Position numbers and translations under genes: made by a program. Shown one piece after another: positions 14,633-55,779 of a stretch of 64,000 nucleotides of DNA (position 1 is its first letter; every line of letters begins with the position of its first letter). Below the pieces are notes generated by a model. It was not told the DNA's origin. It was given only the letters and a program-made list of their open reading frames with translations, and ran no database searches. The DNA is from Candidatus Latescibacterota bacterium (GTDB taxonomy: Bacteria; Latescibacterota; UBA2968; UBA8231), in contig OZ244561.1 in NCBI GenBank assembly GCA_965217585.1, positions 2,976,001 through 3,040,000 of the forward strand, read 5' to 3'.

Positions 14633-14825
14633 GCTGCCTCCGGTCTGGGTCTCGTCATCCAAGGCGACGGGGATGCGGGTGTTGACCGCTTGGGCGTCGT
14701 GCGGCTGCTAAAAGAGTCGATAGCTTAATAGACTGTCAAGGTAAGCTACAGTTCTGGGAGCCGTATTTACAGGGGCTATGGCGAAGGAAGATTGCGGCGC
14801 GATCGTAAAGTAGAGTCTTATCTAG

Positions 14826-14948
14826 GGCATCCGCGACGGCCTCTCCAACGAGGTGGTGGACAACCCGGTCGAAATGGTGGGACGCGGCGATCTGCTGTTG
14901 TGCGTGCAGCGGCAGAGCGCGTCCGGGCAGATCGAGCCGCTGAATTAG
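14826..14948 (+). pseudogene. duplicated, diverged 3' end of thiN
   Basis: Reads GIRDGLSNEVVDNPVEMVGRGDLLLCVQRQSASGQIEPLN*, versus thiN 13544-13669 GVREGISNEVVDNPVEIRVGRGDLLLCVQRERASGQIELLD*. Confidence 0.9.
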
Positions 14949-15607
14949 TCGCTGTCCCAAGCCAGCGATAGCTGAATCCCAACCTGCCCGGTCCCCAATT
15001 CCAAGCGCGGCGCGATCTCCACTCCCTGCTCCTGCTTTTCGTCGCCCAACGCGAGCAACTGCCACCCAGCGAGGGCAAAGGCCGCCGCAGTCATCCAGCT
15101 CATCTGGCTTTGGGTGTCGCGGCTGTTGGCGCGGTCCAAAAAGCGCTCGGCTTCTTGCGGCGTGCTGGCCTTTTGGTAGCGCCGATAAGCGTCGTCGCCC
15201 TGCTGGCGAAAGTCCCAGCTTTTGACGAGCAGTATCGCGCTCCCGCTGCAAAGGGCCCAGCCCCAAGCGCGGCGCGACGTCATCCAGCCACGATCTGCGC
15301 CCCTTACCGACCATGCCACCGCCCCTAAACCCATCGCCCCCATCACCACCGCCCGCGTGTCGAATCGTCGGCGCTCGTCGTAGAAGATCTGCGCGTCGCT
15401 GCTGGACTCTGTCCGCTCGTAGCGCTCGTCGGCCCGGTTGGCTTCCCGCCGCGCCTGATAGGCTTCGCTGAGCAGCCAGCCGCCGGCACCCAGCGCGATA
15501 TAGCTGGCTACTTTGCGCGAGAGGCGCGGACCATCCGCTCGCGCCTCTCCGAGCGACGCCAGCGTCAGGATGCAGGCCAGTGTTAGAATGCTCCGTCTGT
15601 TGTTCAC
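14945..15607 (-). CDS. hypothetical membrane protein with two internal TM-helix repeats (DUF5683-like)
   Basis: Signal peptide; two similar units (TM, A..Y..Y...S..A..F.D.....DT, TM); GTGA overlap with the TolC-family gene stop. Confidence 0.7.
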   Translation of the reverse strand: MNNRRSILTLACILTLASLGEARADGPRLSRKVASYIALGAGGWLLSEAYQARREANRADERYERTESSSDAQIFYDERRRFDTRAVVMGAMGLGAVAWSVRGADRGWMTSRRAWGWALCSGSAILLVKSWDFRQQGDDAYRRYQKASTPQEAERFLDRANSRDTQSQMSWMTAAAFALAGWQLLALGDEKQEQGVEIAPRLELGTGQVGIQLSLAWDSD

Positions 15608-16983
15608 CGCAGGTCTCCACGCCCTCTGGCGGCGACGGGTTTCCCCACCGCTTGGTCGAGCTGGGCTAGCTGGATGTGGTAGTTGAAAATGGCCTGGACT
15701 AAGTCGTTGCGCGCCGCAAAAAGGCTCGCTTGCGCTTGGAGCCGCTCTAGCTGCGTTCCGGTGGACAAAGCATAGCGCTCCTGCGCCAGCTTGTAGCTTT
15801 CCTCGGCAGCGCTGACCGCGATCTGGTTGGCCTCAATGCTGCGCCGATATAGCTCGATATTGAGGAAGGCTCTTTTAATATCCAGTGCCACCTGCCGCTT
15901 AGCTTGGTCGAAGTCTTCCATGCGCTGGCGGTAGTTCAGCTTTTGCGACTTGATGGAATTCTGGGTGCTCAAGCGGTTGAATAACGGCAGCCCCAGGCTC
16001 ACGCTGAACGAGTAGCCGTAGTTTTTCAAAAAGAGATCTTCCGGCCCCGCAAACGTCTCGTCGGCCCGCAGTCGCCAGTTGTAGCCGGTGCTCATGCTCA
16101 CGGTCGGGTGCAGCAACTCGTAGCGGGTCCCGCGCAGGTCCTCCTCGGCTTGCAGCAATAAAAACTCCTGCGACCGCAAGTCCGGGCGGTGCTCCAGCGC
16201 CAAGGCCAAGGCTTCCTCGTAGCTCAGCGCGAGCGGTACCATCGCAAATTCCTCCTCGACCGGCACAATCGGTTCGTAGGTCCGCAAGCCCATGGCAAAG
16301 GCCAAGTCGGCACCAGTCACCGCGACGCTGTTTTCGCGGTCGATTAGGTTCGCCCGTGCGCTGGCCAACGCGGCCCGCTCCGTCAGCACATCCGACAGGG
16401 GCACCGAGCGGACCTCGAAGAGCGTCTCGGCCCGGCGCAGGCTCTCCTCTGAGACCCGCACCTGCTCGGTCTGTACCTTCATCAGTTCAATAGCCTGCAA
16501 TAAGCTGAAGTATCCCTGCTTGACCTCAAAGACTACTTGCTGCTGGCTCGTACTCAGGTCCATCTCGGCCGCCTTGTGCCCCAGTTTGCTCGACGCTAGG
16601 GCGGTCCAGTTGCCGCGATTGTACAGGTTCATACTGAAGCCGGTACCCAGCGACTGCGAGCCGCTGGAGGTGCTCTCGCCGAGGGTAGAGGTGACCTCGC
16701 CGGTGGCTGGATCGACAAAGGATCCCTCGCGCGGCCCGGAGACGCTGCGCGACATCCCGTAGGAGGCGCTGATCGATGGTAGAAAGGCATTGCGAGCGTT
16801 CCCGATTTGGATCGCCGCGGCTTCGATATTGGAGCGGCCCTGGATGACCGCGGCGCTCTGCTCTAGGGCGATGGCGATGCAGTCGTCCATGCTCAAGCGG
16901 AGCGCCGCTGGCTCTGCTGCGCCGCTGGGGCGCGTCAGGACCCCCACCACCAGCCAGCAGAAAACGGTGTGTTTACTTTTCAC
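15604..16983 (-). CDS. TolC family outer membrane efflux protein
   Basis: LSMDDCIAIALEQS, FLPSISAS, VKQGYFSLL, ALEHRPDL, LPLF, A.ESYKLAQERY..G; GTG start overlaps the upstream stop. Confidence 0.9.
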   Translation of the reverse strand: MKSKHTVFCWLVVGVLTRPSGAAEPAALRLSMDDCIAIALEQSAAVIQGRSNIEAAAIQIGNARNAFLPSISASYGMSRSVSGPREGSFVDPATGEVTSTLGESTSSGSQSLGTGFSMNLYNRGNWTALASSKLGHKAAEMDLSTSQQQVVFEVKQGYFSLLQAIELMKVQTEQVRVSEESLRRAETLFEVRSVPLSDVLTERAALASARANLIDRENSVAVTGADLAFAMGLRTYEPIVPVEEEFAMVPLALSYEEALALALEHRPDLRSQEFLLLQAEEDLRGTRYELLHPTVSMSTGYNWRLRADETFAGPEDLFLKNYGYSFSVSLGLPLFNRLSTQNSIKSQKLNYRQRMEDFDQAKRQVALDIKRAFLNIELYRRSIEANQIAVSAAEESYKLAQERYALSTGTQLERLQAQASLFAARNDLVQAIFNYHIQLAQLDQAVGKPVAARGRGDLR

Positions 16984-17699
16984 GAGAGCAGCCTTTCTCG
17001 CTGCGCCATCTGCCGCAGCCCCGAAAAGAGCAAGAGCGCACCGCCGAGCACCAGCGTCGCGCGGTTGAGCGCGACCATCTCGGCCCACACCGCATCGTCT
17101 AGGCCCAGCGGCAGGCTAAAGGGATTTAAGAAGAGAAAGTAAGCGGTCTCCGCCAGCGACTCGGCGCTCAGCAATACCGCGACCAGTACTCCCAGCGAAA
17201 GCATCCCGGCCGTATTGCTGCTCTTGCAGAGCACCGAAAAGAAGAAGGTCAGATTGGCGATCAGAAACGCCGGTGCGAACGCATTGAGTCCGCCCAGCGC
17301 GAACGGAAATTCGGCGAAGAGGAAATAGGCCGCCGCACTCATGCCCAGCAGGGTCGCCGCCAATAGCAGGTAAACGGCCACCATCCGCAGCGCCCAGATC
17401 CCGTAGTGCGAGGTGGAAGTGCTAAAGAGCGCCTCCAGCGTCCGGCGGTCGCGCTCGCCGGCCACCAGATCCATCGCTAGGTAAATCGCCAAGACCGCGC
17501 CGGGGATCTCCACCAGCACGTAGGGGGCCTGCCCGGCGCTGAACCCCTCGTCCGGCCGGAACACCGCCAGTGCGTAGAGCACTCCGTAGTATGTGGCGAT
17601 ACCCAAAACCATGAGCAGCAGCTTGCGGTGAAAGACGATCCGCGCACTGAGCCAGCACTGGGCGACTAAGCTGGCAAACAGGGTGGTCCAAGTCAGCAC
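16980..17699 (-). CDS. ABC-2 type transporter permease
   Basis: About six TM helices, cytoplasmic GERDRRTLEALFSTS motif, NPF near the C-terminus. Confidence 0.8.
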   Translation of the reverse strand: MLTWTTLFASLVAQCWLSARIVFHRKLLLMVLGIATYYGVLYALAVFRPDEGFSAGQAPYVLVEIPGAVLAIYLAMDLVAGERDRRTLEALFSTSTSHYGIWALRMVAVYLLLAATLLGMSAAAYFLFAEFPFALGGLNAFAPAFLIANLTFFFSVLCKSSNTAGMLSLGVLVAVLLSAESLAETAYFLFLNPFSLPLGLDDAVWAEMVALNRATLVLGGALLLFSGLRQMAQRERLLS

Positions 17700-20600
17700 G
17701 AGGGCACGTTCTCCCGTCTCAACACATAGATGTAGGCGTCCTCCAGCGTCGGCTCGACGGGCACGGCCGCCAGCCCCGGCACGGCGTCCGCAGCCAGAAA
17801 CCGCACGCGAATGCCGGCGGGTGCGCGCAAGTGCGAGATCACGTTGACCTGCTCGCCGATCCGGGATAGCTCCTCTTCGGCGACGACCGCCTCCCACGCA
17901 TGGCCTTGCGCCAGATCGCGCATGGCCTGCGGCGTGCCCTCGTAGAGGATGCGGCCGGCATTGAGCACTGCGAGGCGGTTGCAGCTACCGGAAATATCCT
18001 CGACGATGTGGGTCGAGAAAAGGACGATCCGCTCCTGACTGATCCGCGCCAACAGGTTGCGGAAGCGAATCCGCTCCACCGGATCTAGGCCCGCGGTCGG
18101 CTCGTCAACGACGATGATCTGCGGCAGATGCAGCAGGGTCTGCGCGATCCCCACGCGCTGCTTCATGCCGCCGGAAAACGAGCCGATCAGGTCGTCTTGC
18201 CGCCCGTCGAGATTGACCTGTTCGAGGCTGGCACCGACCCGGGCGCGGCGCAGGGCCGGGTCGCGGAATCCCTCCAGCAGGGCGCGATACTCTAGATACT
18301 GATAGGCCGTCAGGTGCTCGTAGAGGCCGAAGTGCTGGGGCAAATAGCCGATCACCCCCTGCACTGGGCCGCGGCGGGTGACATTGACGCCGTCAAAGGC
18401 CACCGATCCCGAGCTTGGCTCCAGCACTTGCGATATGATCCGCATCAGCGTCGTCTTGCCGGCCCCGTTGGGGCCGAGCAGGCCGAACATGCCGCGCCCG
18501 ATCTCCAAGTTGACCCCATAGAGGGCTTGGTATTGCGGCCTTTCCACGCCGATCAGGGGCAGGGCCGCCGCCCCGCGATACGCCCTGCGCACCAGCCACG
18601 CCAGCCGACCTGCCAGCGCCGCCGGATCCACCTCGCCGCGGCGCACCCGGTCGGCCAACAGACGCGCCCCCTGATAGCCCAGCCACACCGCCAGCGAGGC
18701 GACCGTCAGCGAAGGCAGTGCCAAGCGTTGATGTACATAGCCAACCAATAGCAGCGGCACCGCCCATTGCGCCAGCGCGTGCGCCCCCGCGCCCAGACCA
18801 AGCAAAGCCCCCTGCCGCAGCACGTGGGCCACCAAGCCCCACGTCGCCAGCGAGAGCAGGTAGAGCCAGAGCGCGTCCGCAAAGTAGGTGTGTAGAAAGC
18901 CGAGGAGCACCAACAGCGGCAGCTTCCAGCTCAAGCCGTCCTTGATCGCTTTGCGATCTACCGGGTCAATACCTTGAGTCCGCAGTCTTGAGTCGCGGCG
19001 GTCGAAGCGCGTCCACTCCCGGCGGAAGCGCCCGGGGGCACCGTAGATCTTGGTCAGGGTTTGCAGGCGGATCGAATGCACCGCCGGCACCTCGTGCCGC
19101 GCCGCCCGGGCGCGGTAGATCCGCAGGGCAAGCGCGGCCACTCCGAGCAGCAAAAACCACAGCGGCAGCGCCAAGAGCACCGGCCAGAACAGGCTCGCGG
19201 ACTCCATATACAACGCGACCACAGCCGCCGCCGCGACCACAGTCGCCAATCCCACGCCGACGCGGCCGATCCCCCTGAGCCACGCCCGCACCTGATCCAG
19301 CCCCATATAGGCCACCGGCACGAAGATCAGCGTCGAGACCATCGACACCGCCAGCCCCCCCAAGACGGTGATGGCGAAGGGCGGCCAGACCTCGTAGTCG
19401 CCGCCGAAGTCGAGCGCCAAAGGCATCACGCCCAACAGGGTCGTCGCCGAGGTCATCAGGATCGGCCGCACCCTGGAGCGAGCGGCCGCCAGCACCGCCC
19501 GCTCGCGGCGGCAGCCTTCCCGCTCGCGGAGCGTGCCAATGGCGTCGATGAGGATAATGCCGTTGTTGACGGCAATGCCGATCAACACGATAAAGCCCAG
19601 CAGAGCCATCGGCCCCGCCTGCGAGCTTAGCCCGGTGCCCGTCAGCATCAGCGCCCAGCACGAGCCAATCGCCGCGGTCGGCAGGGTGCAAAAGATCAGC
19701 AGCGGCGAGGCGAACGATTCAAAGAGCGAGGCCAGCACCATGTAGGTCAGCACCGCCGCGATCCCCATCATCCAGTAGTAGATCGCATCCGTTGCGACCT
19801 CGGCGATCTCGATGGTGTAGTCGCCGGGCAGCACCAAGTCTTGGACCACTGCCCGCACTTGGTCCCGCGCCGCGTCGAGCAGGGGCTGCGAGTCGAGGAT
19901 TTCGTCTGTGAACTGATAGGAGACCACCACGCGCCGCGCTTGGTCGGTGCGCAGGATACTATTGCGCCCCTCGTCGGTGCGCACCTTGGCCAGCTCCGCA
20001 AGCGGCACATACTCACCCGTACTGGTCAGCACCGGAATGGCCCCAACCCCGGCGCGCCCGGGCCCATCGGCCTCTGGGTCTGCGGTCGGCCGCACCTCGA
20101 TGGGGATCTCGCTGCCGTCGGCCTTGAGGAAATCCGTCTGTGCTGCGAAGCCTTCTGGATTGGCGTTGGCTATCGCGCTCAGGACGGTGTTGACGCGCAG
20201 GTCGTGGTCGAAAAGCGCCAGCGGACGGGGAATCACCTGGATCTCGGGGCCGCTGCGCTGGAGGTCGGGCCGCACGCTGTTGGCGTCGATTTCCTCCAAC
20301 TCTTCGAGCCGATAGGACAAATCGTCGGCGATCATCTGCAACACCGCGAAGTCGTACCCCTTGATCAGCGCCGTCTCTGAGGTGGCCCCCGCCTGCAAGT
20401 TGAAACCCCCGGTCCCCCCGGTCCCCCCGGTCCCCCCCCCGCGTCCGCCACCCCGTCCCCTGCCGCCGCCGAAACTGCTAGCCTGCGGTTCGTAGCCGAT
20501 CAGGGCACCCTGAATTTCCTGCAACTCGCCGTCGAGCTGGTCCTTCAATTCCTCGGCCGACACCCGCTCGGGCCGCTCGTCGCGGTCGAGGAGCATCACC

Positions 20601-22396
20601 GTGACGCTGCCCTGCCCCTCCTGGACGCTGGTCGTAAACCGCTCAATGCCCGGCAGTACTTGCACCGCGTCCTCAATCTGTCGCATCACCTCGTCTGTCG
20701 CATCGAGGGTCGCGCCGTCGGAGAGACTCGCGTACACCGAAAACCGAGTCTCCGCGGCGATGACTTCCTGTTGCAGCAGGAAAAAGAACGCGGCCACCAA
20801 CGTCGCCAGCAGCACCAGGAACACGCCGCAAGCCACTGCGCCCCGATGGCGCAAACTGGCCTTGAGGAACAGCGTGTACCTCCCCATTAGCCTTCCCGTG
20901 CCCAAAGGTGCCGATGCCTGACGCTCGAGCATCCGCGCCGCCAACGCGGGTACCAGCGACAGGGCCACCAGCAGCGAGGCCAGCAGCGGGAAGGTGATCG
21001 CCAGCGCCAACTCGCGCAGAATGTCCTGGAAGTCGCTCTGGATAAAGACTACCGGCAAAAAGACCAGTGCCGTTGTCGCCGTCGCCGCGATCACTGCCTT
21101 GCTCACTTCCTCCGTGCCGTCGCGCGCCGCCTCTACGGGCGATTTGCCCCGCTCGAAGTGCTTGAAGATGCTCTCCATCACCACGATGCTGTTGTCGGTC
21201 AGCATCCCCATCGCCAGTGCCAGCCCGCAGAGCGAGAGCACGTTGAGCGTTAGATCCGAGGCGTACATCAAGTTGAACGTCGCCAGCAGCGAAGCCGGAA
21301 TCGCCAGTAGCAGGATGGCCACAAAGTGCGCATTGCGCAGAAAGAGGAACAGCACCGCCAACCCCAACACCAGCCCGACCAACGCCGCCTGTTTCAGGGT
21401 GTCGAGCGAGTCCTCCATCAGCGCGGCTTGGTTGTTGGTGACGATCAGCGACACACCCTCGGGCGCGAAGTCGCGGTTGAGCTGGGCGATCGCCGTGGCC
21501 ACTGCATCGGCGACCGCGATCAGGTTGGCCTCGTCCTCTTTCTGGATCAGGATCCCCACCGCCGACTGGCCGTTGACCCGGCTCAAGTCCGTGCGCTGCT
21601 GCAACCCGTAACCCACCTCGGCCACATCCCCCAAGCGCAGCGGGATCGACGCGTCGATGAGGGTCTCGTCAATCTGCCGCAAGTCGCCAAACTGCCCCTG
21701 AAAGCTGACCGGAAAGACTTGGCTGCCGTCGTACACCGCGCCGAGATAGACCCGGGGCTGGTTGGCGTCGGCGAGCGCGTTGCGCAGATCGGCCATCGTC
21801 AACTGGTAGGCTTGCAGGCGCTCCGGCTCGGCGACGATCTCCACCGCGCTTTGCCGACCGCCCAATACCTGGGCGCTGACCACCCCTTCGACCGCGGCCA
21901 GCGCGGGGGCGATATGTTCCTCGGTGTAGTCCCTGAGCCAGTTGAGGTCCGCCTCTGCTGCCAGGACCTGCAATTCCATCACCGTCGCGCTCAGATCGTT
22001 CTCGTCGAAGCGCTGCACCGCGATTTGGGTCCGGGCGGGAAAACTTGGTTGCAGGCGGTCCATCCGGCTCTGCACCTGCAAGAGCGCGAATTTCATATCC
22101 GTGCCCGGCTCGTAGGATATCCGCACATTGCCCCGGTTGAGCGAGGCGGTAGAAGTCATTTCCACCACGCCTTCGAGCTGACTTATTTCCTCCTCGACCG
22201 GCATCACCAACTCGCGCTCGACCTGTTCGGGTGCCATGCCCTGCTGCGCGATCGCGACGAAGATCTCGGGGTACACCACCTCGGGCATCAGCTCCACGGG
22301 CAGGCGGTCGAGCGAGATCAGCCCCAACAGCGAGACCGCGGAGAAAAACATCGCCGTCGTCACTGGGCGGCGGATGGAGAAGGCCGACAAGCTCAC
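17693..22396 (-). CDS. RND (AcrB-like) permease fused to a C-terminal ABC ATPase domain, ~1567 aa
   Basis: SIRRPV N-terminus, TDNSIVV, VNNGII, RVRPILMT; then extra TMs; then GPNGAGKTT, GYLPQ, FSGGMKQR, VDEPTAGLDP, STH, all in one open frame; GTG 22396 overlaps the previous stop. Confidence 0.88.
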   Translation of the reverse strand: MSLSAFSIRRPVTTAMFFSAVSLLGLISLDRLPVELMPEVVYPEIFVAIAQQGMAPEQVERELVMPVEEEISQLEGVVEMTSTASLNRGNVRISYEPGTDMKFALLQVQSRMDRLQPSFPARTQIAVQRFDENDLSATVMELQVLAAEADLNWLRDYTEEHIAPALAAVEGVVSAQVLGGRQSAVEIVAEPERLQAYQLTMADLRNALADANQPRVYLGAVYDGSQVFPVSFQGQFGDLRQIDETLIDASIPLRLGDVAEVGYGLQQRTDLSRVNGQSAVGILIQKEDEANLIAVADAVATAIAQLNRDFAPEGVSLIVTNNQAALMEDSLDTLKQAALVGLVLGLAVLFLFLRNAHFVAILLLAIPASLLATFNLMYASDLTLNVLSLCGLALAMGMLTDNSIVVMESIFKHFERGKSPVEAARDGTEEVSKAVIAATATTALVFLPVVFIQSDFQDILRELALAITFPLLASLLVALSLVPALAARMLERQASAPLGTGRLMGRYTLFLKASLRHRGAVACGVFLVLLATLVAAFFFLLQQEVIAAETRFSVYASLSDGATLDATDEVMRQIEDAVQVLPGIERFTTSVQEGQGSVTVMLLDRDERPERVSAEELKDQLDGELQEIQGALIGYEPQASSFGGGRGRGGGRGGGTGGTGGTGGFNLQAGATSETALIKGYDFAVLQMIADDLSYRLEELEEIDANSVRPDLQRSGPEIQVIPRPLALFDHDLRVNTVLSAIANANPEGFAAQTDFLKADGSEIPIEVRPTADPEADGPGRAGVGAIPVLTSTGEYVPLAELAKVRTDEGRNSILRTDQARRVVVSYQFTDEILDSQPLLDAARDQVRAVVQDLVLPGDYTIEIAEVATDAIYYWMMGIAAVLTYMVLASLFESFASPLLIFCTLPTAAIGSCWALMLTGTGLSSQAGPMALLGFIVLIGIAVNNGIILIDAIGTLREREGCRRERAVLAAARSRVRPILMTSATTLLGVMPLALDFGGDYEVWPPFAITVLGGLAVSMVSTLIFVPVAYMGLDQVRAWLRGIGRVGVGLATVVAAAAVVALYMESASLFWPVLLALPLWFLLLGVAALALRIYRARAARHEVPAVHSIRLQTLTKIYGAPGRFRREWTRFDRRDSRLRTQGIDPVDRKAIKDGLSWKLPLLVLLGFLHTYFADALWLYLLSLATWGLVAHVLRQGALLGLGAGAHALAQWAVPLLLVGYVHQRLALPSLTVASLAVWLGYQGARLLADRVRRGEVDPAALAGRLAWLVRRAYRGAAALPLIGVERPQYQALYGVNLEIGRGMFGLLGPNGAGKTTLMRIISQVLEPSSGSVAFDGVNVTRRGPVQGVIGYLPQHFGLYEHLTAYQYLEYRALLEGFRDPALRRARVGASLEQVNLDGRQDDLIGSFSGGMKQRVGIAQTLLHLPQIIVVDEPTAGLDPVERIRFRNLLARISQERIVLFSTHIVEDISGSCNRLAVLNAGRILYEGTPQAMRDLAQGHAWEAVVAEEELSRIGEQVNVISHLRAPAGIRVRFLAADAVPGLAAVPVEPTLEDAYIYVLRRENVPSC

Positions 22397-25300
22397 CGCA
22401 GCCGCTCCACCGTCTCGTAGGCCACGGGAATGACCACCAGCGTCATCAGCGTCGCGGAAATAAGTCCGCCGATCACCGCAATCGCCATCGGCGCCCGCAA
22501 GGCCGCCCCTTCGCCCACCCCGATTGCCATCGGCGCGAGCGCCAAAATCGTGGTTGCCGTCGTCATCAGGATCGGCCGCAGCCGGTCCTGCGCGCCCTGC
22601 AGCACGGCCGCGCGCACCGTCGGCAACTGCGCCCGTAGCTGGTTGATGCGATCGACCAATACGATAGAGTCGTTGACCGCGATCCCGCCCAGCATGATGA
22701 TGCCGATATAGGCCATTGCGCTCAGCGGCTCGCCCAGCCCCCAGAAGGCCCACACCACGCCGACGCCAGCCAGCGGCACGGTCAGCATCACGGTAAAGGG
22801 GTGCAGCAGCGACTCAAAAAGCGAGGCCATCACCATGTACACCAGCACCACCGAGAGCAGCAGCGCGAACTGCAAGTCGGCAAAGGACTCCTGTCGCTCG
22901 CGCTCCTCGCCGCCGATGGCGATCCGATAACCACGGGGCAGGGCCATGCTATTGACGACCTGCTCGACCTGCCCGATGGCCTCGCCCAACACCGCGCCTT
23001 CGACCAGATAACCCGCCACCCGCCCGACCCGGCGCTGGTCCTCGCGCAAAATCTCGCGCGGCCCTTCGACAAGTATGGGATCCGACAAATCGCCCAGAGC
23101 CAGAATCGCCCCATCGGGCGCATCAATCCGCAACTGCGGCAGCTCGCGCAAGTCGAAGCGCGCAAAACCGACGCGGATGTCGCGCGAGCGTTGGTCTTTG
23201 GACAACTCGCCGATTACCTCGCCCGACAGCCGGCGCTCCAGCGCCTGCACGATGGTCGCGACGGTCAGCCCGCTGGCGACGACCGCGTCCTCGCGCAGCC
23301 GCAGGTCGATCTCAGGTTGGCCGCCTTGGAAGTTCGAAGTGACGTTGTACACGCTCGGCAGCTCCTCCAAGCGGGCGGCGAGATCGGCGCACAGGCGGCG
23401 CAACACTTCCACCTCGTCGCCAATAATCTCCACTTGGACCGGGGCCGTCCGCTCGCCCAGCACTCCTTCGAGCGCGGTCTCGTGTAGCTGGTATTGCACG
23501 TCTAGTTCGGGGATTTGCGCCAATTGCGCGTCAACGACCTCGACCAGTTGCGGCAGGTTGCGACTGGTCTGCTGGGCCAGCGCGACCGACAGCGTGGCGC
23601 GGTTGGGTCCGGTAGGGTCGCCGATGTTGGCCAGCCGCGCCGGGTCCACGCCCGCCCGGGCGTACACTCCGGCCACATCGTCGCCGCCTACCTCGCCGAT
23701 GATCTCCCCCACCCGCTTGGCCACCCGATCGGTCAGCTCCAGCCGCGACCCTTGCGCCAGTGACAACTCCACGTGGAAAAGCCCTTGGTCTTCGCGCGGG
23801 ATAAACTCGGTGGGGATTGCGCGGGCGACGTAGGCCGTGCCCGCGCCCGTTGCGGCCACCAGCAACAAAACCACTCCCTTGTGGTCGAGCACCGCGTTGA
23901 GCAAAGCGCGGAAGCGCAACCAGCGCTGCTCGGTTGTCGCCCCGCCGCGCCCGCGCAAAAAACGCGAGGTTAGCATCGGCACGGTCATCATCGCCACCGC
24001 CAGTGACGAGACGAGCGAAAAAGCCACGGTCCAGGCTTGGTCCTTAAACAGTTCGCTGGTCAGCCCTTGCAGGTAAACGATCGGCAGGAAAACCGACACG
24101 GTCGTCAGCGTCGAGGCCGTAATCGCCACCCCGACCTCGCTGGCTCCCTTTGTCGAAGCTTGGCGCGCGTCTTCGCCCCGCTCGAGGTGGCGGTAGATAT
24201 TCTCAATGACCACGATCGCGTTATCGACCAGCATCCCCGCCCCTAGCGCCAAGCCGCCGAGGGTCATGATATTGAGCGTCAGATCCTCGAAATACATCAG
24301 GGTAAAGGTCGCTAGAATTGAAATCGGAATCGCCAGGCCGATCACCAAAGTCGCCGTCCACGAGCGCAAGAAAAACAGCAATACCCCCACCGCCAACACC
24401 GCCCCGTGCAGCGCCGCCTCTTTGACCTCGGCTACGGCCTCCTCGATAAAGCGCGCTTGGTTTTCAACCACTGCAAAGCGCAACTCGGGCAAGTCTTGGT
24501 CGAGCTCGCCGATGGATTCGAGCACCCGGTTGATGACCTGTACCGTATTGCTACCGGCCTCCTTGTAGAGCGCCAAGCCGATGCACTCGACTCCGTCGAG
24601 CCGCACGATCGTCTCCCGTTCCGCGTACTCCAGCGCCACCCGTCCCACTTCGCGCACGTAAACCGGCACCTGCAACCCCGCCTCGACGCCTGCCCCCTGC
24701 CGCGCCCCGACGATCACATTGCGCACGTCCGCTAGGTCTTTGAGCCGCCCCAGCCCCTTGACCTGGTACGATTGCTGCGCCTCGCGCAAGGTCCCCCCGG
24801 ACACGTCCTCATTGGCCGAGGTAATCGCCGCGATGACTTGGTCGGCGTCCTGCCCAAAGGCTTCGAGCAGGTACGGATCCAACGTCACCCGGATTTCTTT
24901 TTCCGCATCTCCTTCGATGTCTGCCGAGGCCACCCCGGCGAGTGCTTCCAGCTTGGGCTTGACCACGGTCTCGACCGCGCCCAACAGCTCGTCGAGGTCG
25001 GCCAACTCCGTCGCCGAGACCGCGATCCGCATCACCGGCAGCGCCTGCGGGTCCTCCTGAATGACATCGAGCGTTTCAATATCCTCGTCGGTGGCGTACA
25101 CCCCCATCTTCTTCTGCACGTCGATCAGGGCAAAATCCATATCCGCTTCCCAATCGAACTCGGCCACCACCACGGACTGCCCTGAGCGGGTGATCGAATA
25201 GACCCGAGCGACTCCGCTGATCGTGCTGATGTCGCGCTCCAGCCGCCGCGTATATTGCTCTTCCACCTCCTGCGGCGCCTTGCCGGGCACCTGCAAGTCA

Positions 25301-25440
25301 ACTGTGATGACCGGCGTGTGCATGTTGGGCAGCAGGTCGGTCCCCAATTTGCTTAGGGAGATCGCCCCCAACAGCGCCACCGCGAGGGTCAGCATCAACA
25401 CGGTGACGGGATAGCGGGTGGAAAACTCAGGTAGCGACAT
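22393..25440 (-). CDS. RND (AcrB/AcrD/AcrF family) efflux permease
   Basis: FSTRYPV, LVDNAIVVIENI, VNDSIVLVD, RLRPILMTT, PMAIAVIGGL. Confidence 0.93.
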   Translation of the reverse strand: MSLPEFSTRYPVTVLMLTLAVALLGAISLSKLGTDLLPNMHTPVITVDLQVPGKAPQEVEEQYTRRLERDISTISGVARVYSITRSGQSVVVAEFDWEADMDFALIDVQKKMGVYATDEDIETLDVIQEDPQALPVMRIAVSATELADLDELLGAVETVVKPKLEALAGVASADIEGDAEKEIRVTLDPYLLEAFGQDADQVIAAITSANEDVSGGTLREAQQSYQVKGLGRLKDLADVRNVIVGARQGAGVEAGLQVPVYVREVGRVALEYAERETIVRLDGVECIGLALYKEAGSNTVQVINRVLESIGELDQDLPELRFAVVENQARFIEEAVAEVKEAALHGAVLAVGVLLFFLRSWTATLVIGLAIPISILATFTLMYFEDLTLNIMTLGGLALGAGMLVDNAIVVIENIYRHLERGEDARQASTKGASEVGVAITASTLTTVSVFLPIVYLQGLTSELFKDQAWTVAFSLVSSLAVAMMTVPMLTSRFLRGRGGATTEQRWLRFRALLNAVLDHKGVVLLLVAATGAGTAYVARAIPTEFIPREDQGLFHVELSLAQGSRLELTDRVAKRVGEIIGEVGGDDVAGVYARAGVDPARLANIGDPTGPNRATLSVALAQQTSRNLPQLVEVVDAQLAQIPELDVQYQLHETALEGVLGERTAPVQVEIIGDEVEVLRRLCADLAARLEELPSVYNVTSNFQGGQPEIDLRLREDAVVASGLTVATIVQALERRLSGEVIGELSKDQRSRDIRVGFARFDLRELPQLRIDAPDGAILALGDLSDPILVEGPREILREDQRRVGRVAGYLVEGAVLGEAIGQVEQVVNSMALPRGYRIAIGGEERERQESFADLQFALLLSVVLVYMVMASLFESLLHPFTVMLTVPLAGVGVVWAFWGLGEPLSAMAYIGIIMLGGIAVNDSIVLVDRINQLRAQLPTVRAAVLQGAQDRLRPILMTTATTILALAPMAIGVGEGAALRAPMAIAVIGGLISATLMTLVVIPVAYETVERLR

Positions 25441-25450
25441 AATGCGAGTA

Positions 25451-26548
25451 CTATCTCCCCGGCCCGCCCCGACCACCTGCCCCCCTAGCCTCTCCGGTCC
25501 CCGTTACACTGACCCGCGTCCGCGACCGCAGGGTCTCGTAGTTGCTCGTAATCAGCCGCTCCCCCTCCTCCACGCCGCGCAGCACCTCCACGAACGTTTC
25601 GTCCTCTAGCCCGGTCTCAATTTCCCGCATCTGCGCCCGTGCGCTTTCTTCGACGAATACGACCTCGCGATTCCTCCTCACTAGCACCAACTCGCGCGGT
25701 ACCAGCACCACGTCGGCGTGCGACTCGACCACGATCTCGGCCTTGACGAACATCCCTGGCCGCAGCAAGTGCTCGGGGTTGTCTATCGCCGCCACCGCGC
25801 GAAAGGTCCGCGTCGCGGCATCCACCACCGGGTCAACCGCGACGATGCGGCCGGCGAACACCTCGTCCGGGTAGGAGTAATCGACCGCCCGCACGGGCTG
25901 ATCCAGCGCGATGTGGCGGATTTGCGAGTTGGGAATCTGCAAGTCGAGCAGCACCGCGCTGTAATCGACGATGCGGCAGATCTGGATGTTCGCCTCGACC
26001 AGCGTCTGCTCGCTGGCGTCGGTGAACTCGCTGAGCACCCCGGAGATCGGGGCGGTAATTGCGGTCTTGCCGATCTGGACCAAGGCGTCGTCGTAGTCCG
26101 ACTGCGCGTCGGCCAAATCCTTGCGCGCCGCTTCGACATCGAACTGGGTCACCAAGCCGCGCTCGACTAGGACTTCTTGTTCGGCGAGGGTTTGGCGCGC
26201 GTTCTGCACGGCCAGCTTGCGCGCCTCCAGCCGGGCACCGACCACCAGTTCCTCGTTGTCGAGGCGGGCGAGCACTTGGCCCTGCTGCACGGCCATCCCC
26301 TCGGTCGGCTTGCGCCCGTCGCCTAGTTGGACCAGCGACAGGAACCCCCGCGTCTCGGTGACCACCACTGCTTCCTGCACTGACCGCAGGGTGCCGGTGG
26401 AGGTAACGACGGACTCGATGGTCCCCAACCCCACCGGCTGCACGGTGACCGGGACCGTCAAATCGGCCGTCTGCTGGACGGTCTCGCTTTCGCAGCCGAT
26501 TAGCAACAGGAGCGCCCATGCCGAGGCGCATAGGATTGTATATCGCAT
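25451..26548 (-). CDS. RND periplasmic adaptor (MFP) lipoprotein
   Basis: Lipobox LIGC; V..GQVLARLD, ITAPISGV, P.VD.ATRTF, LRPGMF; GAGG upstream of ATG. Confidence 0.92.
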   Translation of the reverse strand: MRYTILCASAWALLLLIGCESETVQQTADLTVPVTVQPVGLGTIESVVTSTGTLRSVQEAVVVTETRGFLSLVQLGDGRKPTEGMAVQQGQVLARLDNEELVVGARLEARKLAVQNARQTLAEQEVLVERGLVTQFDVEAARKDLADAQSDYDDALVQIGKTAITAPISGVLSEFTDASEQTLVEANIQICRIVDYSAVLLDLQIPNSQIRHIALDQPVRAVDYSYPDEVFAGRIVAVDPVVDAATRTFRAVAAIDNPEHLLRPGMFVKAEIVVESHADVVLVPRELVLVRRNREVVFVEESARAQMREIETGLEDETFVEVLRGVEEGERLITSNYETLRSRTRVSVTGTGEARGAGGRGGPGR

Positions 26549-26563
26549 ATTTACCTCAGAGCA

Positions 26564-26588
26564 GGGCAAGCACAAGGGCTGCCCCGAC
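26564..26588 (-). repeat. degenerate REP-like palindrome
   Basis: Minus strand GTCGGGGCAGCCCTTGTGCTTGCCC resembles the element at 32844-32868. Confidence 0.55.
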
Positions 26589-26635
26589 AAGATTTGTTGG
26601 TATAGATGCTTTAGGATGTGCCCTACGGATATGTC

Positions 26636-29600
26636 TCAAAATACCTTGTTCAACCAACGGGTAATAGCGCTCGGTTGCTGCCGCCCGCCACCGCGACCGC
26701 CGCGACCGCCGCGACCGCCGCGACCGCGCCAATTGCCGAAAGACCCCACATCTTCCTCGTAGGCGGCCTCTGGGTTGTCTGGGTCAATCCAGCGCCAGCG
26801 CACTGCATCGGCGTAGAGTTGGCCGCTGGCTTGGTCGGACAGCTCGACCCGCGCCCTTTCGCCTTCGGCAAAGTGAAATCGCCCCAGCAAATTCCAGCCG
26901 CCTTGCAGCGTCTCGCTCTTGAGCGCGAGAGTATCTACCACACCCCCATGCGCGACCGCGAGCGAAAACGATTCGGCCAAGCTCAACCCAAAGCGCCGAC
27001 TAAACCGCGACGGCACGAAATAGTACGCCACGTCGTAGAAGCCCGCCTTGGGCAGCGTGGTCGTCCACACCGCCGGCTGCGCCCCATCGCCGGGCGGCTT
27101 CCAGCGGAAATTGGTCTCGTAGCGGCCGAAGGCAAGAGGCAGCTCCTGCACCTGCCAGTTGTCGCCTCTAAGCCCGGGGCGCAGGTAGCGTTGCACCCGG
27201 CGGATCGGCATGGAAAAGCCCTCGTCGTCGTTGTCGACTACGATCTCCGAGAAAAAGTTTTCCTCGTCTTCTACGACTCGCACGTAGGATTTGGGATAGC
27301 CGGCAAAGACCTGCTCGGGGATGCTCAAGGCGGCGACAATCGGCCGCTGGTTTTTGGCCAAAAACGGCTCGACCATCACCCGGAACGGCCGTGCAAAAAG
27401 CACCATGGACACCTCGACCTCCTGCCCGCCTTCAATGGCAATCGCCTTTGCGGCTTGGTCCTCGCGCCCAAGGGCCTGCACCTCGACAAAGCCGCGGCCC
27501 GGCTCGCCGTTTTTGATCCGCACGATCACCTGGTACACCACTGCGCCCCAGCCGTCGTCCATCTTCTTGGCCGTCGCCCGGGTCAGGGTATAGCCCGGCA
27601 CGTGGGTTCCGTAGATCCAGTCGTGGACTAGCTGCTGCACGTCGATCTTCTGGCGGCCAACTTCCCCGTCGGGGACGACCGCATCCTCAAAATCGGCAAA
27701 GGAGACCTGCTGGTACTTGTTGTTCTCGTCAAAGGTGCCGACCGCTTCGATAAATTGGTCGGCCCCCAGCACCGACTTGACGACCCGGAAGATGGACAGG
27801 CTCTTGGCTTTGAGGATCGACCGGTAGAGGGCGGGTTCGGCGGCTTTGTCCATTTCCGCCAGCGAGTGCTGCTGCATCTCTACCACCAGCGTGTCCCAAG
27901 CCGGGCCGGTGTTAGCGGCGGGCCGGGGGGCACCGCCGGGGCCGCCGCCCCGAGAGCGCATCATGCTGCTGATCATCCGCGCCATTCCGCCGCTCATCCG
28001 GCCGCCCCAGCGGCTCGAAAACATCGCCATCCGCAAGTCGGCGCTGACGTCTTCCTGCATGTAGAGCGGCAACCCGCGCGCGACTAGGTCGGCGTGCTCG
28101 CCGCCGAAGCCGCGGTCAAAGGACCATAGCTGCACCAGTGGGCTGCGAAACAGGCCGCTACGCCCTCCTTCGGGACTCAAGAAATCCTGGAAGAGTGCCC
28201 CGACCAGCACGTCTTTTTTGGCTTGCGCCTCGTCTTGGTCGCCGCGCCGCCGCGCCATCCGCGCATCAAAGTCGCGCTGGAAGCGGTGGCCCATCAACAC
28301 GTCCTCCTCAATCATCAGCACCCCTGGCTGCACTAGGCCACCGCGCTCCTCCCAGCCCTCGTAGTACCACTGCACCAAGAAGGGCACCTCCACCAGCGAG
28401 AGCCTCGGGTACGAGTATTTCAGCCCCGTCTCCTGCTCCATCGCGTCGAAAAGCTGGTCGATGGTCTCTACTACTTTGTCGGGAGCGTCGGCGAAAAAGC
28501 GCACCGGGCGCAGGTGGGCCGGATGGACATAGAGGGCGAACTCGACCTCGCGGACCGTGGTCTTATAGACCTCGTAGCGGCCGGCGTGTAGAGAAAAAAG
28601 CGGCACCGGATAATCCACCTGCCACTGCGTGCGGACGCGCCCGCCTTGGTCCTCTTGGGCTATGGGTCGCCCCTGCGTGACCACCTCCAGCCCAGCGGGC
28701 ACCGACACCGCGATCTCTGCCGTGGCAAACGAAGGCGGCGGCGGCACTTGCGGGTGGTAGGCTACCCCGGCGATGGGATACCAGCCGCTGCGTGGGGGCA
28801 AAAAGACCGATTCGCCGCGGATCCAGGCCGTCAGGTCGCCCTTGATAAACGGCCACTTGTTCTTGTGCAGCCGCACCTCGTCGCGCAGCAGATCAAAGCC
28901 TTGGCGGTCGATGTCGCCGTCGTAGGCCAGCGTCAAGGTCTGCTCAGCCCCGGCGGCCAGCGGCGCGGCGACCCGGATCACGGCCGCACCCCGCTTCCAC
29001 CCCAACTCGTTGCCGGCCGCATCCTGCACCGACCGCAGCGTCAAGCCGGGGTTGAGCGCAAAAATCAGCGTATCCAGCGCGCCGTCGTGGTCGTTGTACA
29101 ATCGCAACTGGGCCTTGGCCGCCAGCGGCGCATCCTCGCCAGCCAACGCGACCTCCAGCCGGTAGTGCGCCACCTGCGGTACCGGCGCGTCTGCGTAGCG
29201 ATATTGCTCGGCGAGCAGGCGCTGGCGATAGGCTTGGTTGGCTTGGTCTTGGGCGTCGATGTGCTGATACAGCCCCACCGCCGCCAACAGCCCCACCCCG
29301 GCCATGCCCCGGCCGACCCAAGCCCATCCCAGCGACTGGGACAGGCGCGGATAGCGCTCTATCGACAGGCCAAAAAAGAACAGCCCGAGGGCTAAGTAAA
29401 AAAGCCGCTGGTCGATCACCCGCGATATATCGCCCAAGCCGATCATGTCCGAGTAGAAAAGCGGGGCGAAAAAGGCCCCAAAGTCCCACCAGCCGCCGTA
29501 GCCCTCGCCGAGGTAAAACAACACCGCGAGCGCGTAGGCCATAGTCAGCAGGGCGACAGCCGTCTGGTGCCGCAACACAGCGCCTAAAAAGAAGGTCAGG

Positions 29601-30094: not shown

Positions 30095-30099
30095 GGCGT

Positions 30100-30972
30100 T
30101 TAGGCCGATCCCATAAAATAGATATAGGCGTCTTCGAGGCTGGGCGCGGTCGGCACGGCACCCGGCGGCGGTGCTGCGTCGCCGACGATCCTGAGCGCCA
30201 TGCCGACGCCGTCGGCGCTGATGTTGACCACGCTAAAGCGGCTGGCGATGGCCTCAAACCCGTCGTCGTCGGTCTGCAAAAGCCAGGTTTTGCCCTCGGC
30301 CTTGGCGACGAAGTCCGCGGGTGCGCCGTGGAAGCGCAGCCGTCCCTGATGCAATACGGCCAAGTCCTCGCAGGTGCTCGAAATATCGCCGACGATGTGG
30401 GTCGAGATGAGAATGGTGCGGCTGGCGCTCAGCCTCCCCAAAATGGCCCGGAAGCGGATCCGCTCCTCTGGGTCAAGCCCGACGGTCGGCTCATCGACGA
30501 TGATAAACTCAGGGTCGGCCAAAATCACCTGCGCGATGCCAAGCCGCCGCCGCATCCCCCCCGAAAAGGTGCCGGTCTTGCGCTCGCGCACCTCGTAGAG
30601 ACCCACGTCCTCCAAAGCTTGGGCGACCCTTTCGCGGCGCTGCCGCTGGCCGTGCAACCCGCCGAGCCGCCCCATGTAGTCGAGGAATTCCCAAGCCGAA
30701 AGCTGCGGGTACGCGCCGAAGTGCTGCGGCAAGTAGCCGAGCCGCCGCCGCACCTCGGCGCGGTCCTTTTGCAAGTCCCAGCCGTCGATCTCCACCGCGC
30801 CCGCGCTGGGCACCATCTGGGTGGAGAGAATTTTGATCAGCGTGGTCTTACCCGCGCCGTTGGGTCCTAAGAGACCAAACGTCCCGTGGCGGATCTCCAA
30901 GCTCAGGTCAGCAAGCGCCGGAACCTCGTTGCGGCCATAGGTCTTGCTCAGGTTTTGGATGCGTATTCTCAA
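30100..30972 (-). CDS. ABC transporter ATP-binding protein
   Basis: IQNLSKTY, GPNGAGKTT, GYLPQ, FSGGMRRR, VDEPTVGLDP, STH, PSLEDAY. Confidence 0.95.
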   Translation of the reverse strand: MRIRIQNLSKTYGRNEVPALADLSLEIRHGTFGLLGPNGAGKTTLIKILSTQMVPSAGAVEIDGWDLQKDRAEVRRRLGYLPQHFGAYPQLSAWEFLDYMGRLGGLHGQRQRRERVAQALEDVGLYEVRERKTGTFSGGMRRRLGIAQVILADPEFIIVDEPTVGLDPEERIRFRAILGRLSASRTILISTHIVGDISSTCEDLAVLHQGRLRFHGAPADFVAKAEGKTWLLQTDDDGFEAIASRFSVVNISADGVGMALRIVGDAAPPPGAVPTAPSLEDAYIYFMGSA

Positions 30973-31430
30973 AAACCACCGCCACCACCGCCACCACCGC
31001 CGCGGGGACCGCCGCGGGGACCGCCGCGGCCGCCGAAGTTCCTGCGGCGCTCTTGCTGCTCTTGCATATGCGCTTTCAGTGCCTCGACCTGCTCTTTCTC
31101 CAAGACCTCAGTAAGCACCCCCATGATCTTGGTTTGTATCTCCATTTGCATCTCGCGCATGGTCTCGCGCATGGACCGGAAATCGACCTCGCCGCTGAAC
31201 ATCTTCGCCATTGCCTGCTGTCGCTTTGCGTAGAGCGGCTTGAGGCTGGTCCGCAGTGCGAGTACCTGCTCGTCGGTCACGTTGAATTTCTCCTCGAACG
31301 CCAGCAGACCGAAAATCTGGTCCGGCGACATACCGCCGCGACCACCGCCGCCCGGCTGCGCTTCAAGCGGCAAAACGCCCAACAGACCAATGCCCAAGGC
31401 CCAAAAGGCCGACTTGCGAATGCGTGTCAT
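30969..31430 (-). CDS. small periplasmic helical protein, Spy/CpxP-like, with Gly/Arg-rich termini
   Basis: ATG 31430 with GGAGGA; signal peptide; VTDEQ and VLEKEQ (LTxxQ-like) motifs; Met-rich helices. Confidence 0.7.
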   Translation of the reverse strand: MTRIRKSAFWALGIGLLGVLPLEAQPGGGGRGGMSPDQIFGLLAFEEKFNVTDEQVLALRTSLKPLYAKRQQAMAKMFSGEVDFRSMRETMREMQMEIQTKIMGVLTEVLEKEQVEALKAHMQEQQERRRNFGGRGGPRGGPRGGGGGGGGGF

Positions 31431-31470
31431 ACAATCCTCCACGTAAAAGGTTGGGATGAAACTACAGACA

Positions 31471-31499
31471 TTAGACACCCCGTCCCTCCGATCCATTCC
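31471..31499 (-). promoter_or_regulatory. ECF (sigmaE-like) promoter of the ABC-RND operon
   Basis: Minus strand GGAAT-N18-GTCTAA, about 40 nt upstream of the first ATG. Confidence 0.55.
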
Positions 31500-55737: not shown

Positions 55738-55779
55738 AGTACTACTCAGCTCCAATCTCAGGTTGCCTCGTGGTTTGGA

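Follow-up and report, generated by a model that had tools for sequence, protein, structure and literature searches.

A conserved gene module with an RND-ABC ATPase fusion as a candidate composite envelope export machine in Latescibacterota

We analyzed a 64,000-nucleotide stretch of the genome of a Candidatus Latescibacterota bacterium (contig OZ244561.1, positions 2,976,001 to 3,040,000; hereafter referred to as the window) and focused on nine consecutive, tightly packed genes (g1 to g9; Table 1), which the list of open reading frames (ORFs) places on the minus strand between position 14945 and about 31500. One of these genes, g6, encodes a full permease of the resistance-nodulation-division (RND) family, followed by six extra membrane helices and an ATP-binding cassette (ABC) ATPase domain, all within a single frame of 1567 amino acids (aa) that contains no stop (ACR_tran at residues 4-1031, ABC_tran at residues 1295-1435). 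Textbooks treat RND and ABC exporters as distinct energy-coupling classes, and the two are normally separate machines. We consider it on balance probable that these genes specify a single composite machine for envelope export, with a conserved module of six or seven genes as its basis. Taken singly, the parts are all of known kinds; the novelty lies in their covalent and syntenic union, together with a membrane insertion within the ATPase domain. No description of an RND-ABC fusion, or of an ABC-2 permease with an M1-like module, was found in the open-access part of the literature held by PMC and bioRxiv. To that extent, this agrees with an earlier sequence-only reading of the window, made by a model, which knew of no characterized system with this composition.

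An RND permease fused to a split ABC ATPase

Sequence comparison indicates a genuine and ancient fusion. The C-terminal 538 residues of g6 were searched against a collection of 5.8 billion proteins, and all 120 clusters among the matches listed (proteins of 861-2743 aa; identity 38-88%) carry PF00873 together with PF00005, the combination of ACR_tran and ABC_tran that the sequence-only reading had suggested looking for. The length of the fusion is nearly constant (1486-1646 aa in 108 of the 120 listed clusters, the other 12 being shorter pieces), and the named hosts are Latescibacterota, Gemmatimonadota, Acidobacteriota, KSB1, and Bacteroidales. Database names of these homologues are automatic ("efflux RND transporter permease subunit", "ATP-binding cassette domain-containing protein", "AcrB/ABC-type ... 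ATPase subunit"), and the genes of the module are currently labeled "efflux RND transporter permease", "ATP-binding cassette domain-containing protein", or "hypothetical protein". The 7.3-Mb genome of the window holds one RND-ATPase fusion gene. A profile of the linker between the two halves, run against 1.84 billion representatives, retrieved 161 proteins at E ≤ 0.001 and 116 at E ≤ 1e-10; the linker lay at about residues 1030-1290 in the matches of about 1550-1590 aa that were examined, and the remaining matches were mostly short, fragment-like pieces.

An assembly or frameshift artefact that joined two genes can be practically dismissed and was dropped as an explanation: the frame is open without a stop, 108 of the 120 listed homologue clusters from many sources share a length of about 1570 aa, and closed genomes of other species also carry the fusion. 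A search for split forms among shorter linker proteins gave eight, all of them partial pieces with 77-92% identity; two of the eight share one contig, and they have the appearance of broken gene calls. We also noted a 526-aa protein (P0152) whose Met lies at the first extra helix (TM13, numbered on from the twelve transmembrane helices, TM, of the RND part) and which consists only of linker and ATPase; it could represent the fusion's rare unfused counterpart or else a gene call that was cut short.

We aligned the junction of g6 with those of 14 homologues and with the free ATPase, or nucleotide-binding domain (NBD), g2. After TM12 of the RND part come two hydrophobic helices, a conserved stretch (I-x-L-x-x-L-T-K-I-Y-G-A-P-G-R-F-R-R-E-W), a region of about 170 residues with four helices, and then the strand leading into Walker A. 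The first part of the conserved stretch aligns with the extreme N-terminus of g2 (M-R-I-R-I-Q-N-L-S-K-T-Y-G), and by this alignment residues 1108-1119 of g6 are the first beta-strand and the aromatic A-loop, with its adenine-stacking Tyr, of an ABC ATPase. K1116 and the A-loop Tyr Y1118 are invariant in all 26 full-length fusion sequences. The distance from the A-loop strand to Walker A is about 170 residues in g6 and reaches about 260 in some homologues, so that four predicted helices interrupt the ATPase domain of g6, whereas the free NBD g2 is contiguous.

The same anatomy was seen in an AlphaFold2 (AF2) model of g6 residues 996-1567 (572 residues, 43 aligned sequences; predicted local distance difference test, pLDDT, 82.2; predicted template modeling score, pTM, 0.64). 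In model numbering, where residue i is fusion residue 995+i, two helices (50-71, 75-106) are followed by a strand (113-123), an amphipathic helix (128-145), four long membrane helices arranged as two hairpins round a variable loop (153-176, 180-206, 208-230, 233-257), a connector helix (271-283), and the ATPase core from 294 onwards, and AF2 joins the displaced strand and the later core into one ATPase domain. The model thereby places a four-helix membrane insertion between the A-loop strand and Walker A. Since the numbers of helices before and after the strand are both even (two and four), strand and core would both be cytoplasmic, like the C-terminus of an RND permease. Foldseek matched only the ATPase part of this C-terminal region (nearest relatives TM_1403, NosF, and ABCA-type NBDs), and a profile search of the inserted linker found no relative in the PDB (best E 0.31). 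If this arrangement is true, a membrane domain can be accommodated between the A-loop and Walker A of an ABC ATPase, which would be a new build for an ABC protein.

Conservation and distribution of the module

We then compared 44 loci, comprising 20 from the phylum of the window and 24 from other phyla among the matches listed in a contig scan (mostly Bacteroidota); each of the latter has a full-length fusion homologue (29-35% identity over the best tblastn segment). Their gene content was mapped by phmmer with the window proteins. Gene order, which had been set beforehand as the decisive check, was conserved in 42 of the 44 loci: (free NBD), permease/M1, (outer-membrane protein, OMP), adaptor, RND, RND::NBD, small permease, with g5 and g6 homologues adjacent in 42 of 44. 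These 42 include loci cut at an edge that lack the first genes, as well as two with a frameshifted RND gene. Elsewhere, L022 has the same order with a fragmented fusion gene, and L038 is rearranged. The conserved unit is smaller than the supposed nine-gene unit and comprises six genes plus the channel, without g1 and g9. Homologues of g1 occur in 4 of the 20 in-phylum loci, and those of g9 in 3 of the 20, following the OMP gene in L101, L103, and L109; neither occurs in the 24 loci of other phyla. Both are lineage-specific accessory genes.

The position of the channel gene varies. In Bacteroidota, Zixibacteria, and some of the in-phylum loci it separates permease/M1 from the adaptor, and in the closest kin of the window (L101, L103, L109) it comes after the small permease. 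In the remaining loci phmmer detected no OMP gene; in L112 and L119, Pfam picked up an OEP protein for which phmmer gave a weak score or none. Within the window's own family the module was observed in two subtypes, one resembling that of the window and a second in which the channel gene stands ahead of the adaptor, next to permease/M1.

A quick maximum-likelihood tree of 113 NBDs separated the two kinds of ATPase, with 43 of 44 fused NBDs in one clade (Shimodaira-Hasegawa-like approximate likelihood ratio test, SH-aLRT, 99) and 37 of 38 free NBDs in another set (support 86); the sole outliers were both NBDs of the rearranged L038. The free and fused sub-trees mirror each other, dividing the window's kin from a group made up of Bacteroidota, Zixibacteria, and part of the genomes in the window's own family. 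Such a pattern would follow from a single origin of the fusion, joint inheritance, and transfer across phyla, and the grouping of the second subtype with Bacteroidota and Zixibacteria suggests that the whole module was transferred between phyla.

Hosts of the module include the window's own phylum, Bacteroidota, and Zixibacteria. Among 168 species genomes of the phylum, 83 of the 167 others had a match covering the linker (best E ≤ 1e-18, read from E-values); the raw tally of 149 also counts genomes matched at the Walker A end alone. Within the genus of the window, 6 of 30 other species carry the module, though many of these genomes are single contigs. An even sample of Bacteroidota gave 3 of 400 genomes besides the centre genome, a count based on six candidates scored per genome that may have missed some carriers. 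Since cultured organisms such as Marivirga tractuosa, Draconibacterium mangrovi, and Parabacteroides massiliensis are among the carriers, the family is open to experimental testing.

Pfam analysis of 26 flanking ORFs from 13 loci and of four window ORFs gave no recurring neighbor, apart from housekeeping genes, that could serve as a clue to the substrate. The flanks vary (rimP-nusA-infB in L011, nusA-infB in L027, peptidase U32, flagellin, DAC, and unrelated enzymes), and the module appears self-contained because its flanks are not conserved. Stand-alone ATPases with 41-50% identity to the NBD of g6 are common in other bacteria, where phmmer found no g3- or g7-like neighbors, with one exception. 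In this locus (L034, from an acidobacterial metagenome-assembled genome; 4053-8620, plus strand), the ATPase gene precedes a gene whose 1279-aa product combines two ABC-2 membrane domains with an M1 domain that retains HExxH, and the 15-kb locus contains no RND, adaptor, or channel gene. The sequence-only reading had held that ABC and RND parts occurring independently in relatives would speak against it; this was found in part, in that L034 has the ABC-2/M1 unit without RND. The RND-linked form appears to be derived, and L034 may resemble the ancestor of the ABC half.

Parts of the putative export machine and rival explanations

The RND part of g6, together with g5, g4, and g8, supplies the parts of a tripartite conduit. 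Both permeases match ACR_tran over their full length (g5, 744.9 bits; g6, 628.5 bits; cut-off 28), and the best solved relative of the RND part of g6 is Escherichia coli MdtB (2.5e-83). The adaptor g4 is of the RND type (TIGR01730 RND_mfp 176.6 bits, cut-off 94.9), with a probable lipoprotein start at 26548 suggested by an LLLLIGC motif. The channel g8 matches OEP at 218.7 bits in two stretches, the two-repeat form of the TolC family, and scores below the cut-off of TIGR01844 (172 vs 225).

Residues of the proton relay were compared between the two permeases and their relatives. D401, N402, N944, and R977 of g6 are conserved; neither g5 nor g6 shows any variation at the TM4 Asp or the TM11 Arg, and the second TM4 position is Asn, against Asp-Asp in TM4 of the AcrB/MdtB type. 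At the position aligned with the TM10 Lys of MdtB, which we take to correspond to AcrB K940, both proteins have Asn (N944 in g6). In TM10, g5 orthologues have "ND" in 33 of 42, the type to which the window gene belongs, and "NN" in 9 of 42, and g6 orthologues have "NN" in 43 of 44. Non-fused RND paralogues of the same genome (L004, L005, L006) likewise have "DN" in TM4 and "NN" in TM10. Because these paralogues show the identical pattern, the TM4/TM10 Asn pattern appears to be a variant of an RND subfamily and not tied to the fusion. The idea that the fused protomer is proton-dead was dropped on these grounds.

The permeases g3 and g7 and the ATPases g2 and g6 are the parts for exactly one heterodimeric ABC transporter. 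This fits because every locus that is complete pairs a free with a fused NBD and holds two ABC-2 permeases that differ from each other, as the sequence-only reading had proposed. The free ATPase matches ABC_tran (1.3e-31), and its best NCBIfam models are DrrA (5.7e-56) and GldA (2e-54), both below cut-off. Fused NBDs have Walker A, Q-loop, signature, Walker B with the catalytic Glu, and H-loop in 44 of 44 sequences; all 39 free NBDs have the signature, Walker B with the catalytic Glu, and H-loop, Walker A was found in 31 and the Q-loop in 37 of the 39, and we tentatively attribute the misses to sequences cut at locus edges. Given this conservation of motifs in fused and free NBDs, both ATP sites should be active. 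The small permease g7 scores 26.9 bits with ABC2_membrane_2, just under the gathering cut-off of 27.2. It is, judged by profile comparison, distantly related to the membrane domain of g3 (hhalign probability 75%, E 2.6e-5, 166 columns); this likeness comes from the profiles only, as BLASTP found nothing significant between the two (E 0.064).

The larger permease, g3, combines several modules. Its matches to ABC2_membrane_5 (18.5 bits, cut-off 25) and Peptidase_M1 (19.5 bits, cut-off 27.7) are weak, and that to Golvesin_C is above cut-off (53.3 vs 31.6 bits). An AF2 model built with 38 sequences (pLDDT 79.6, pTM 0.75) contains seven membrane helices, a long stalk helix (residues 255-299), a beta-sandwich, a helical domain, a second beta domain, and a terminal beta-sandwich. 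Foldseek retrieved IRAP, ERAP1, and PepN (E down to 6.9e-19, about 650-690 columns, 10-14% identity), and a PDB profile search also reached M1 peptidases, which together point to the multi-domain M1 fold; the last domain matched the C-terminal domain of Paenibacillus xanthan lyase (1.4e-9). HExxH is absent from all 38 g3 sequences, namely the window protein and 37 aligned orthologues. The aminopeptidase fold of the "M1-peptidase-like domain" named earlier is therefore retained, but the module is an M1 fold without its zinc site, and g3 was not classed as a peptidase because HExxH is lacking throughout. Because the model has an odd number of membrane helices, the M1-like module should be found across the membrane from the N-terminus, presumably in the periplasm. 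Homologues of g3 carry the automatic JGI name of a NosY-type "multi-copper enzyme maturation permease".

The sequence-only reading had also proposed modeling the parts as a complex. A model of g6 residues 1035-1567 with g7 (43-row alignment for each, three controls) reached a median score of 0.65, against 0.00 for the best control; its runs agreed in at least 88% of contacts, and the pLDDT of the partner was at least 75. Among solved complexes, 58 of 80 attained the same mark, as did 2 of 110 mismatched pairs, a rough calibration since our own alignments were used. Confident contacts involve g6 residues 1319-1380 (the groove of Q-loop and helical subdomain), 1419/1423, 1091-1095, and 1118-1119, and, on the g7 side, the N-terminal helix (2-24), a loop that holds the invariant E89 and F92 (85-96 and 101), and residues 234-238. 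The predicted interface supports the ability of g7 to dock on the fused ATPase.

Comparison with known systems placed these parts in context. MdtABC-TolC of E. coli resembles the module in having two adjacent RND genes, one adaptor gene, and a TolC-family channel, besides the relationship of MdtB to g6; MdtB and MdtC form a mixed trimer. It differs in that g5 and g6 score far below the MdtB/MdtC equivalog cut-offs, which speaks against orthology to either, and have Asn in place of the MdtB Lys in TM10, and in that one RND permease here bears six extra helices and an ATPase and is accompanied by complete ABC parts. Exporters of the ABC-2, type V-like kind (DrrAB, GldAFG, NosDFY) share the best NBD models (DrrA and GldA), the NBD fold (TM_1403, NosF, ABCA), the weak ABC-2 matches of the permeases, and a predicted NBD-permease interface that uses the N-terminal helix and the 85-101 loop of g7. 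In contrast to these, all window matches lie under equivalog or gathering cut-offs, two unlike NBDs and two unlike permeases take the place of homodimers, four membrane helices break up one NBD, which is also joined to an RND permease, and one permease has an M1-like module. As in MacAB-TolC, an ABC system, an adaptor, and a TolC-family channel are found in one operon, and energy from a cytoplasmic ATPase would be passed to a periplasmic domain; unlike it, the permeases here give weak ABC-2 Pfam matches rather than matches of the MacB/FtsX type, although no search was aimed at FtsX, the adaptor is of the RND type (MacA 49 bits, cut-off 342), and two RND permeases are present. The unit in L034 has the same succession of ABC-2 and M1-type domains beside an ATPase that is 47% identical to the NBD of g6, but this one example differs in having both membrane domains in a single protein, an intact HExxH, and no RND gene.

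Taken together, the parts would, somewhat more likely than not, work as follows. By analogy with MdtB and MdtC, g5 and g6 would form a mixed trimer, so that each RND trimer would bear one tethered ATPase. The tethered ATPase would recruit g7, and its partner g2 would recruit g3. At the cost of ATP, the ABC half would then extract an amphipathic substrate from the cytoplasm or inner membrane, by lifting or flipping it, and bring it within reach of the catalytically dead, periplasmic M1-like cradle of g3, from which the adjoining RND permease, adaptor, and channel would expel it across the outer membrane at the expense of the proton gradient. A bolder reading is a single, covalently joined supercomplex energized by both ATP and the proton gradient, with one continuous substrate route from the cytoplasm or inner membrane to the outside; we put it forward tentatively, as plausible but somewhat short of probable. 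Its structural counterpart, in which one RND protomer per trimer carries the insertion-split ATPase and nucleates a heterodimeric ABC-2 transporter beside the RND permease, is held with the same reserve. That the RND-ABC join is kept across several phyla with fixed partner genes argues for a naturally coupled, ATP- and proton-driven export. If the coupling is true, the module would offer a direct model of substrate relay from inner-membrane transporters to tripartite pumps, which to our knowledge has so far been inferred from genetics only.

Several points weigh against the favored explanation of one composite export machine. The mixed trimer is drawn by analogy, the contact of the ABC membrane domains with the RND permease is putative, and the substrate classes, an amphipathic peptide or a glycolipid or glycan, are a guess made from the M1-like fold and the carbohydrate-module-like end of g3. 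The interface predicted for g7 is the ordinary ABC-2 NBD groove and coupling helix, so its score may partly reflect likeness to solved transporters; moreover, the confident contacts do not include the four inserted helices, and the model does not distinguish g7 from g3 as the partner. The module is widespread yet accessory, and its patchy spread may indicate a narrow role. As L034 suggests, albeit as one example, the ABC-2/M1 unit can exist alone.

The main rival, a different division of labor within the same complex, would make the ABC half a mechanotransducer, as in MacB, LolCDE, FtsEX, or NosDFY, in which cytoplasmic ATP moves the periplasmic domain of g3 so that it feeds a periplasmic or outer-leaflet substrate to the RND entry, or gates the adaptor and channel, with no inner-membrane passage through the ABC part. 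The roughly 860 periplasmic residues of g3 on a long stalk helix would suit this, as would an M1 fold that is kept with its catalytic site lost in 38 of 38 sequences, which fits binding or clamping; NosF of NosDFY is among the nearest solved NBD folds, and the automatic name of g3 homologues is NosY-type. Translocating ABC-2 exporters of the Wzm/Wzt, ABCA, and ABCG types nevertheless share this NBD fold, and g7 has no periplasmic domain. Although the present data do not separate this proposal from the favored explanation, we regard it as rather unlikely.

Alternatively, the region may encode two independent pumps that are merely co-expressed or co-localized, the fusion fixing stoichiometry or placement, such as at a single envelope site, without any hand-over of substrate or energy. 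The occurrence of the ABC-2/M1 half alone in L034 would fit, as would the sole adaptor being RND-type and the relay residues being those of non-fused paralogues, by which the RND part looks self-sufficient. Co-expression alone, however, needs no covalent link, and the fusion with its membrane insertion is kept across phyla at 33-35% identity over the best tblastn segment and at a conserved length, the free and fused NBD trees mirror each other, and no stable split form was found (P0152 being left as a candidate); two separate pumps are thus quite improbable. We give still less credence to an ATP-driven RND permease, in which the tethered ATPase pair would drive the RND cycle through the inserted helices and replace the proton gradient. 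Those helices do set the ATPase directly beside the RND membrane domain, and neither RND permease has the TM10 Lys of MdtB, but the same TM4 "DN" and TM10 "NN" are found in non-fused paralogues of the same genome, the TM4 Asp and TM11 Arg never vary in g5 or g6, and two ABC-2 permeases would be superfluous, all of which makes this alternative very improbable.

Locus layout and neighboring genes

All nine genes lie on the minus strand, as had been noted before (Table 1), and Pfam and NCBIfam matches together with a direct reading of the junctions bore out the earlier parts list except for the label of g1. Overlaps of the TTGA type join g1 and g2, and those of the GTGA type join g5 to g6, g7 to g8 (start at 16983), and g8 to g9. 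The end of g2 is separated from g3 by 5 nucleotides (nt), g3 from g4 by 45-87 nt according to the start chosen for g4, and g4 from g5 by 10 nt, counted to the ATG at 25440. g6 and g7 overlap by 7 nt (g7 GTG at 17699, g6 TGA at 17693), so the 305-aa ORF earlier given for g7 was corrected to 239 aa (16980-17699). The outer boundary of 31499 also needed adjustment: no start codon lies there, and the candidate starts of g1 are ATG 31496 and ATG 31430, the latter immediately ahead of the signal peptide. A scan for promoters and terminators gave one promoter-like site, on the wrong strand, and terminator-like sites near chance level.

Table 1. Positions of the module genes and of the parts of g6 in the window
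Feature	Position	Strand	Evidence or remark
g1, small secreted helical protein	30969..31430	-	Signal peptide, Gly/Arg-rich tail; start ATG 31430 or 31496
g2, free ABC ATPase (NBD), ABC-2 DrrA/GldA-like type, with C-terminal extra domain	30100..30972	-	ABC_tran
g3, large ABC-2-type permease with M1-like module and Golvesin_C-like beta-sandwich, 1152 aa	26636..30094	-	Pfam, AF2
g4, periplasmic adaptor (membrane fusion protein, MFP)	25451..26590	-	TIGR01730 RND_mfp; HlyD_D23 4.5e-23
g5, plain RND permease, about 1015 aa from ATG 25440	22393..25440	-	ACR_tran 1.6e-223
g6 residues 1-1035, RND permease part of the fusion	19292..22396	-	ACR_tran 2.4e-188, residues 4-1031
g6 residues ~1045-1101, extra helices TM13 and TM14	19094..19264	-	AF2, hydropathy, alignment
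g6 residues 1108-1119, displaced first beta-strand and A-loop of the NBD	19040..19075	-	Alignment with free NBD, AF2
g6 residues ~1123-1285, insertion inside the NBD	18542..19030	-	AF2 helices
g6 residues 1286-1567, remainder of the NBD (Walker A to H-loop) and C-terminal domain	17693..18541	-	ABC_tran 1.5e-26
g7, small ABC-2-type permease, 239 aa	16980..17699	-	ABC2_membrane_2, borderline
g8, TolC-family outer-membrane channel	15604..16983	-	OEP 7.5e-65
g9, 220-aa protein with signal peptide and hydrophobic segments	14945..15607	-	No family match

The two accessory genes gave little in family searches. No Pfam match at E ≤ 0.01 and no NCBIfam match was obtained for g1, so the earlier "Spy/CpxP-like" label finds no PF07813 match behind it; what is left is a lead from its Atlas neighbors, which include LTXXQ clusters at 0.87 (sub-threshold), and g1 may be LTXXQ (Spy/CpxP)-like. 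For g9, Pfam and NCBIfam found no family and the Atlas gave hypothetical clusters only. Low-complexity ends rich in Gly and Arg (RGG-type) were seen in g1 near 30969, g3 near 26636, and g4 near 25451. A Gly/Arg-rich stretch is also present in a periplasmic loop of the fused RND permease (g6 residues ~640-665, near 20400-20480), and the consensus of 26 fusion homologues retains a Gly-rich loop at this position.

Further features were observed around the module. A radical-SAM gene (13682-14662, minus strand) lies 283 nt downstream of g9 on the same strand. In L104, a radical-SAM gene (15760-16989, minus strand) abuts the small permease gene on the opposite strand, which may be a coincidence. On the other side, 5 kb upstream of the module and on the same strand, a single open frame of 5376 aa (36548-52678, minus strand) encodes many Calx-beta repeats with fn3 and cadherin-like domains, that is, a giant surface or adhesin-like protein, within a region of strongly negative AT skew (about -0.26); no such neighbor was seen next to the module in other genomes. 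Beyond it, at 53035-55755 on the minus strand, lies a gene for a 906-aa protein with DUF5117 and DUF4953 (Met-zincin) domains.

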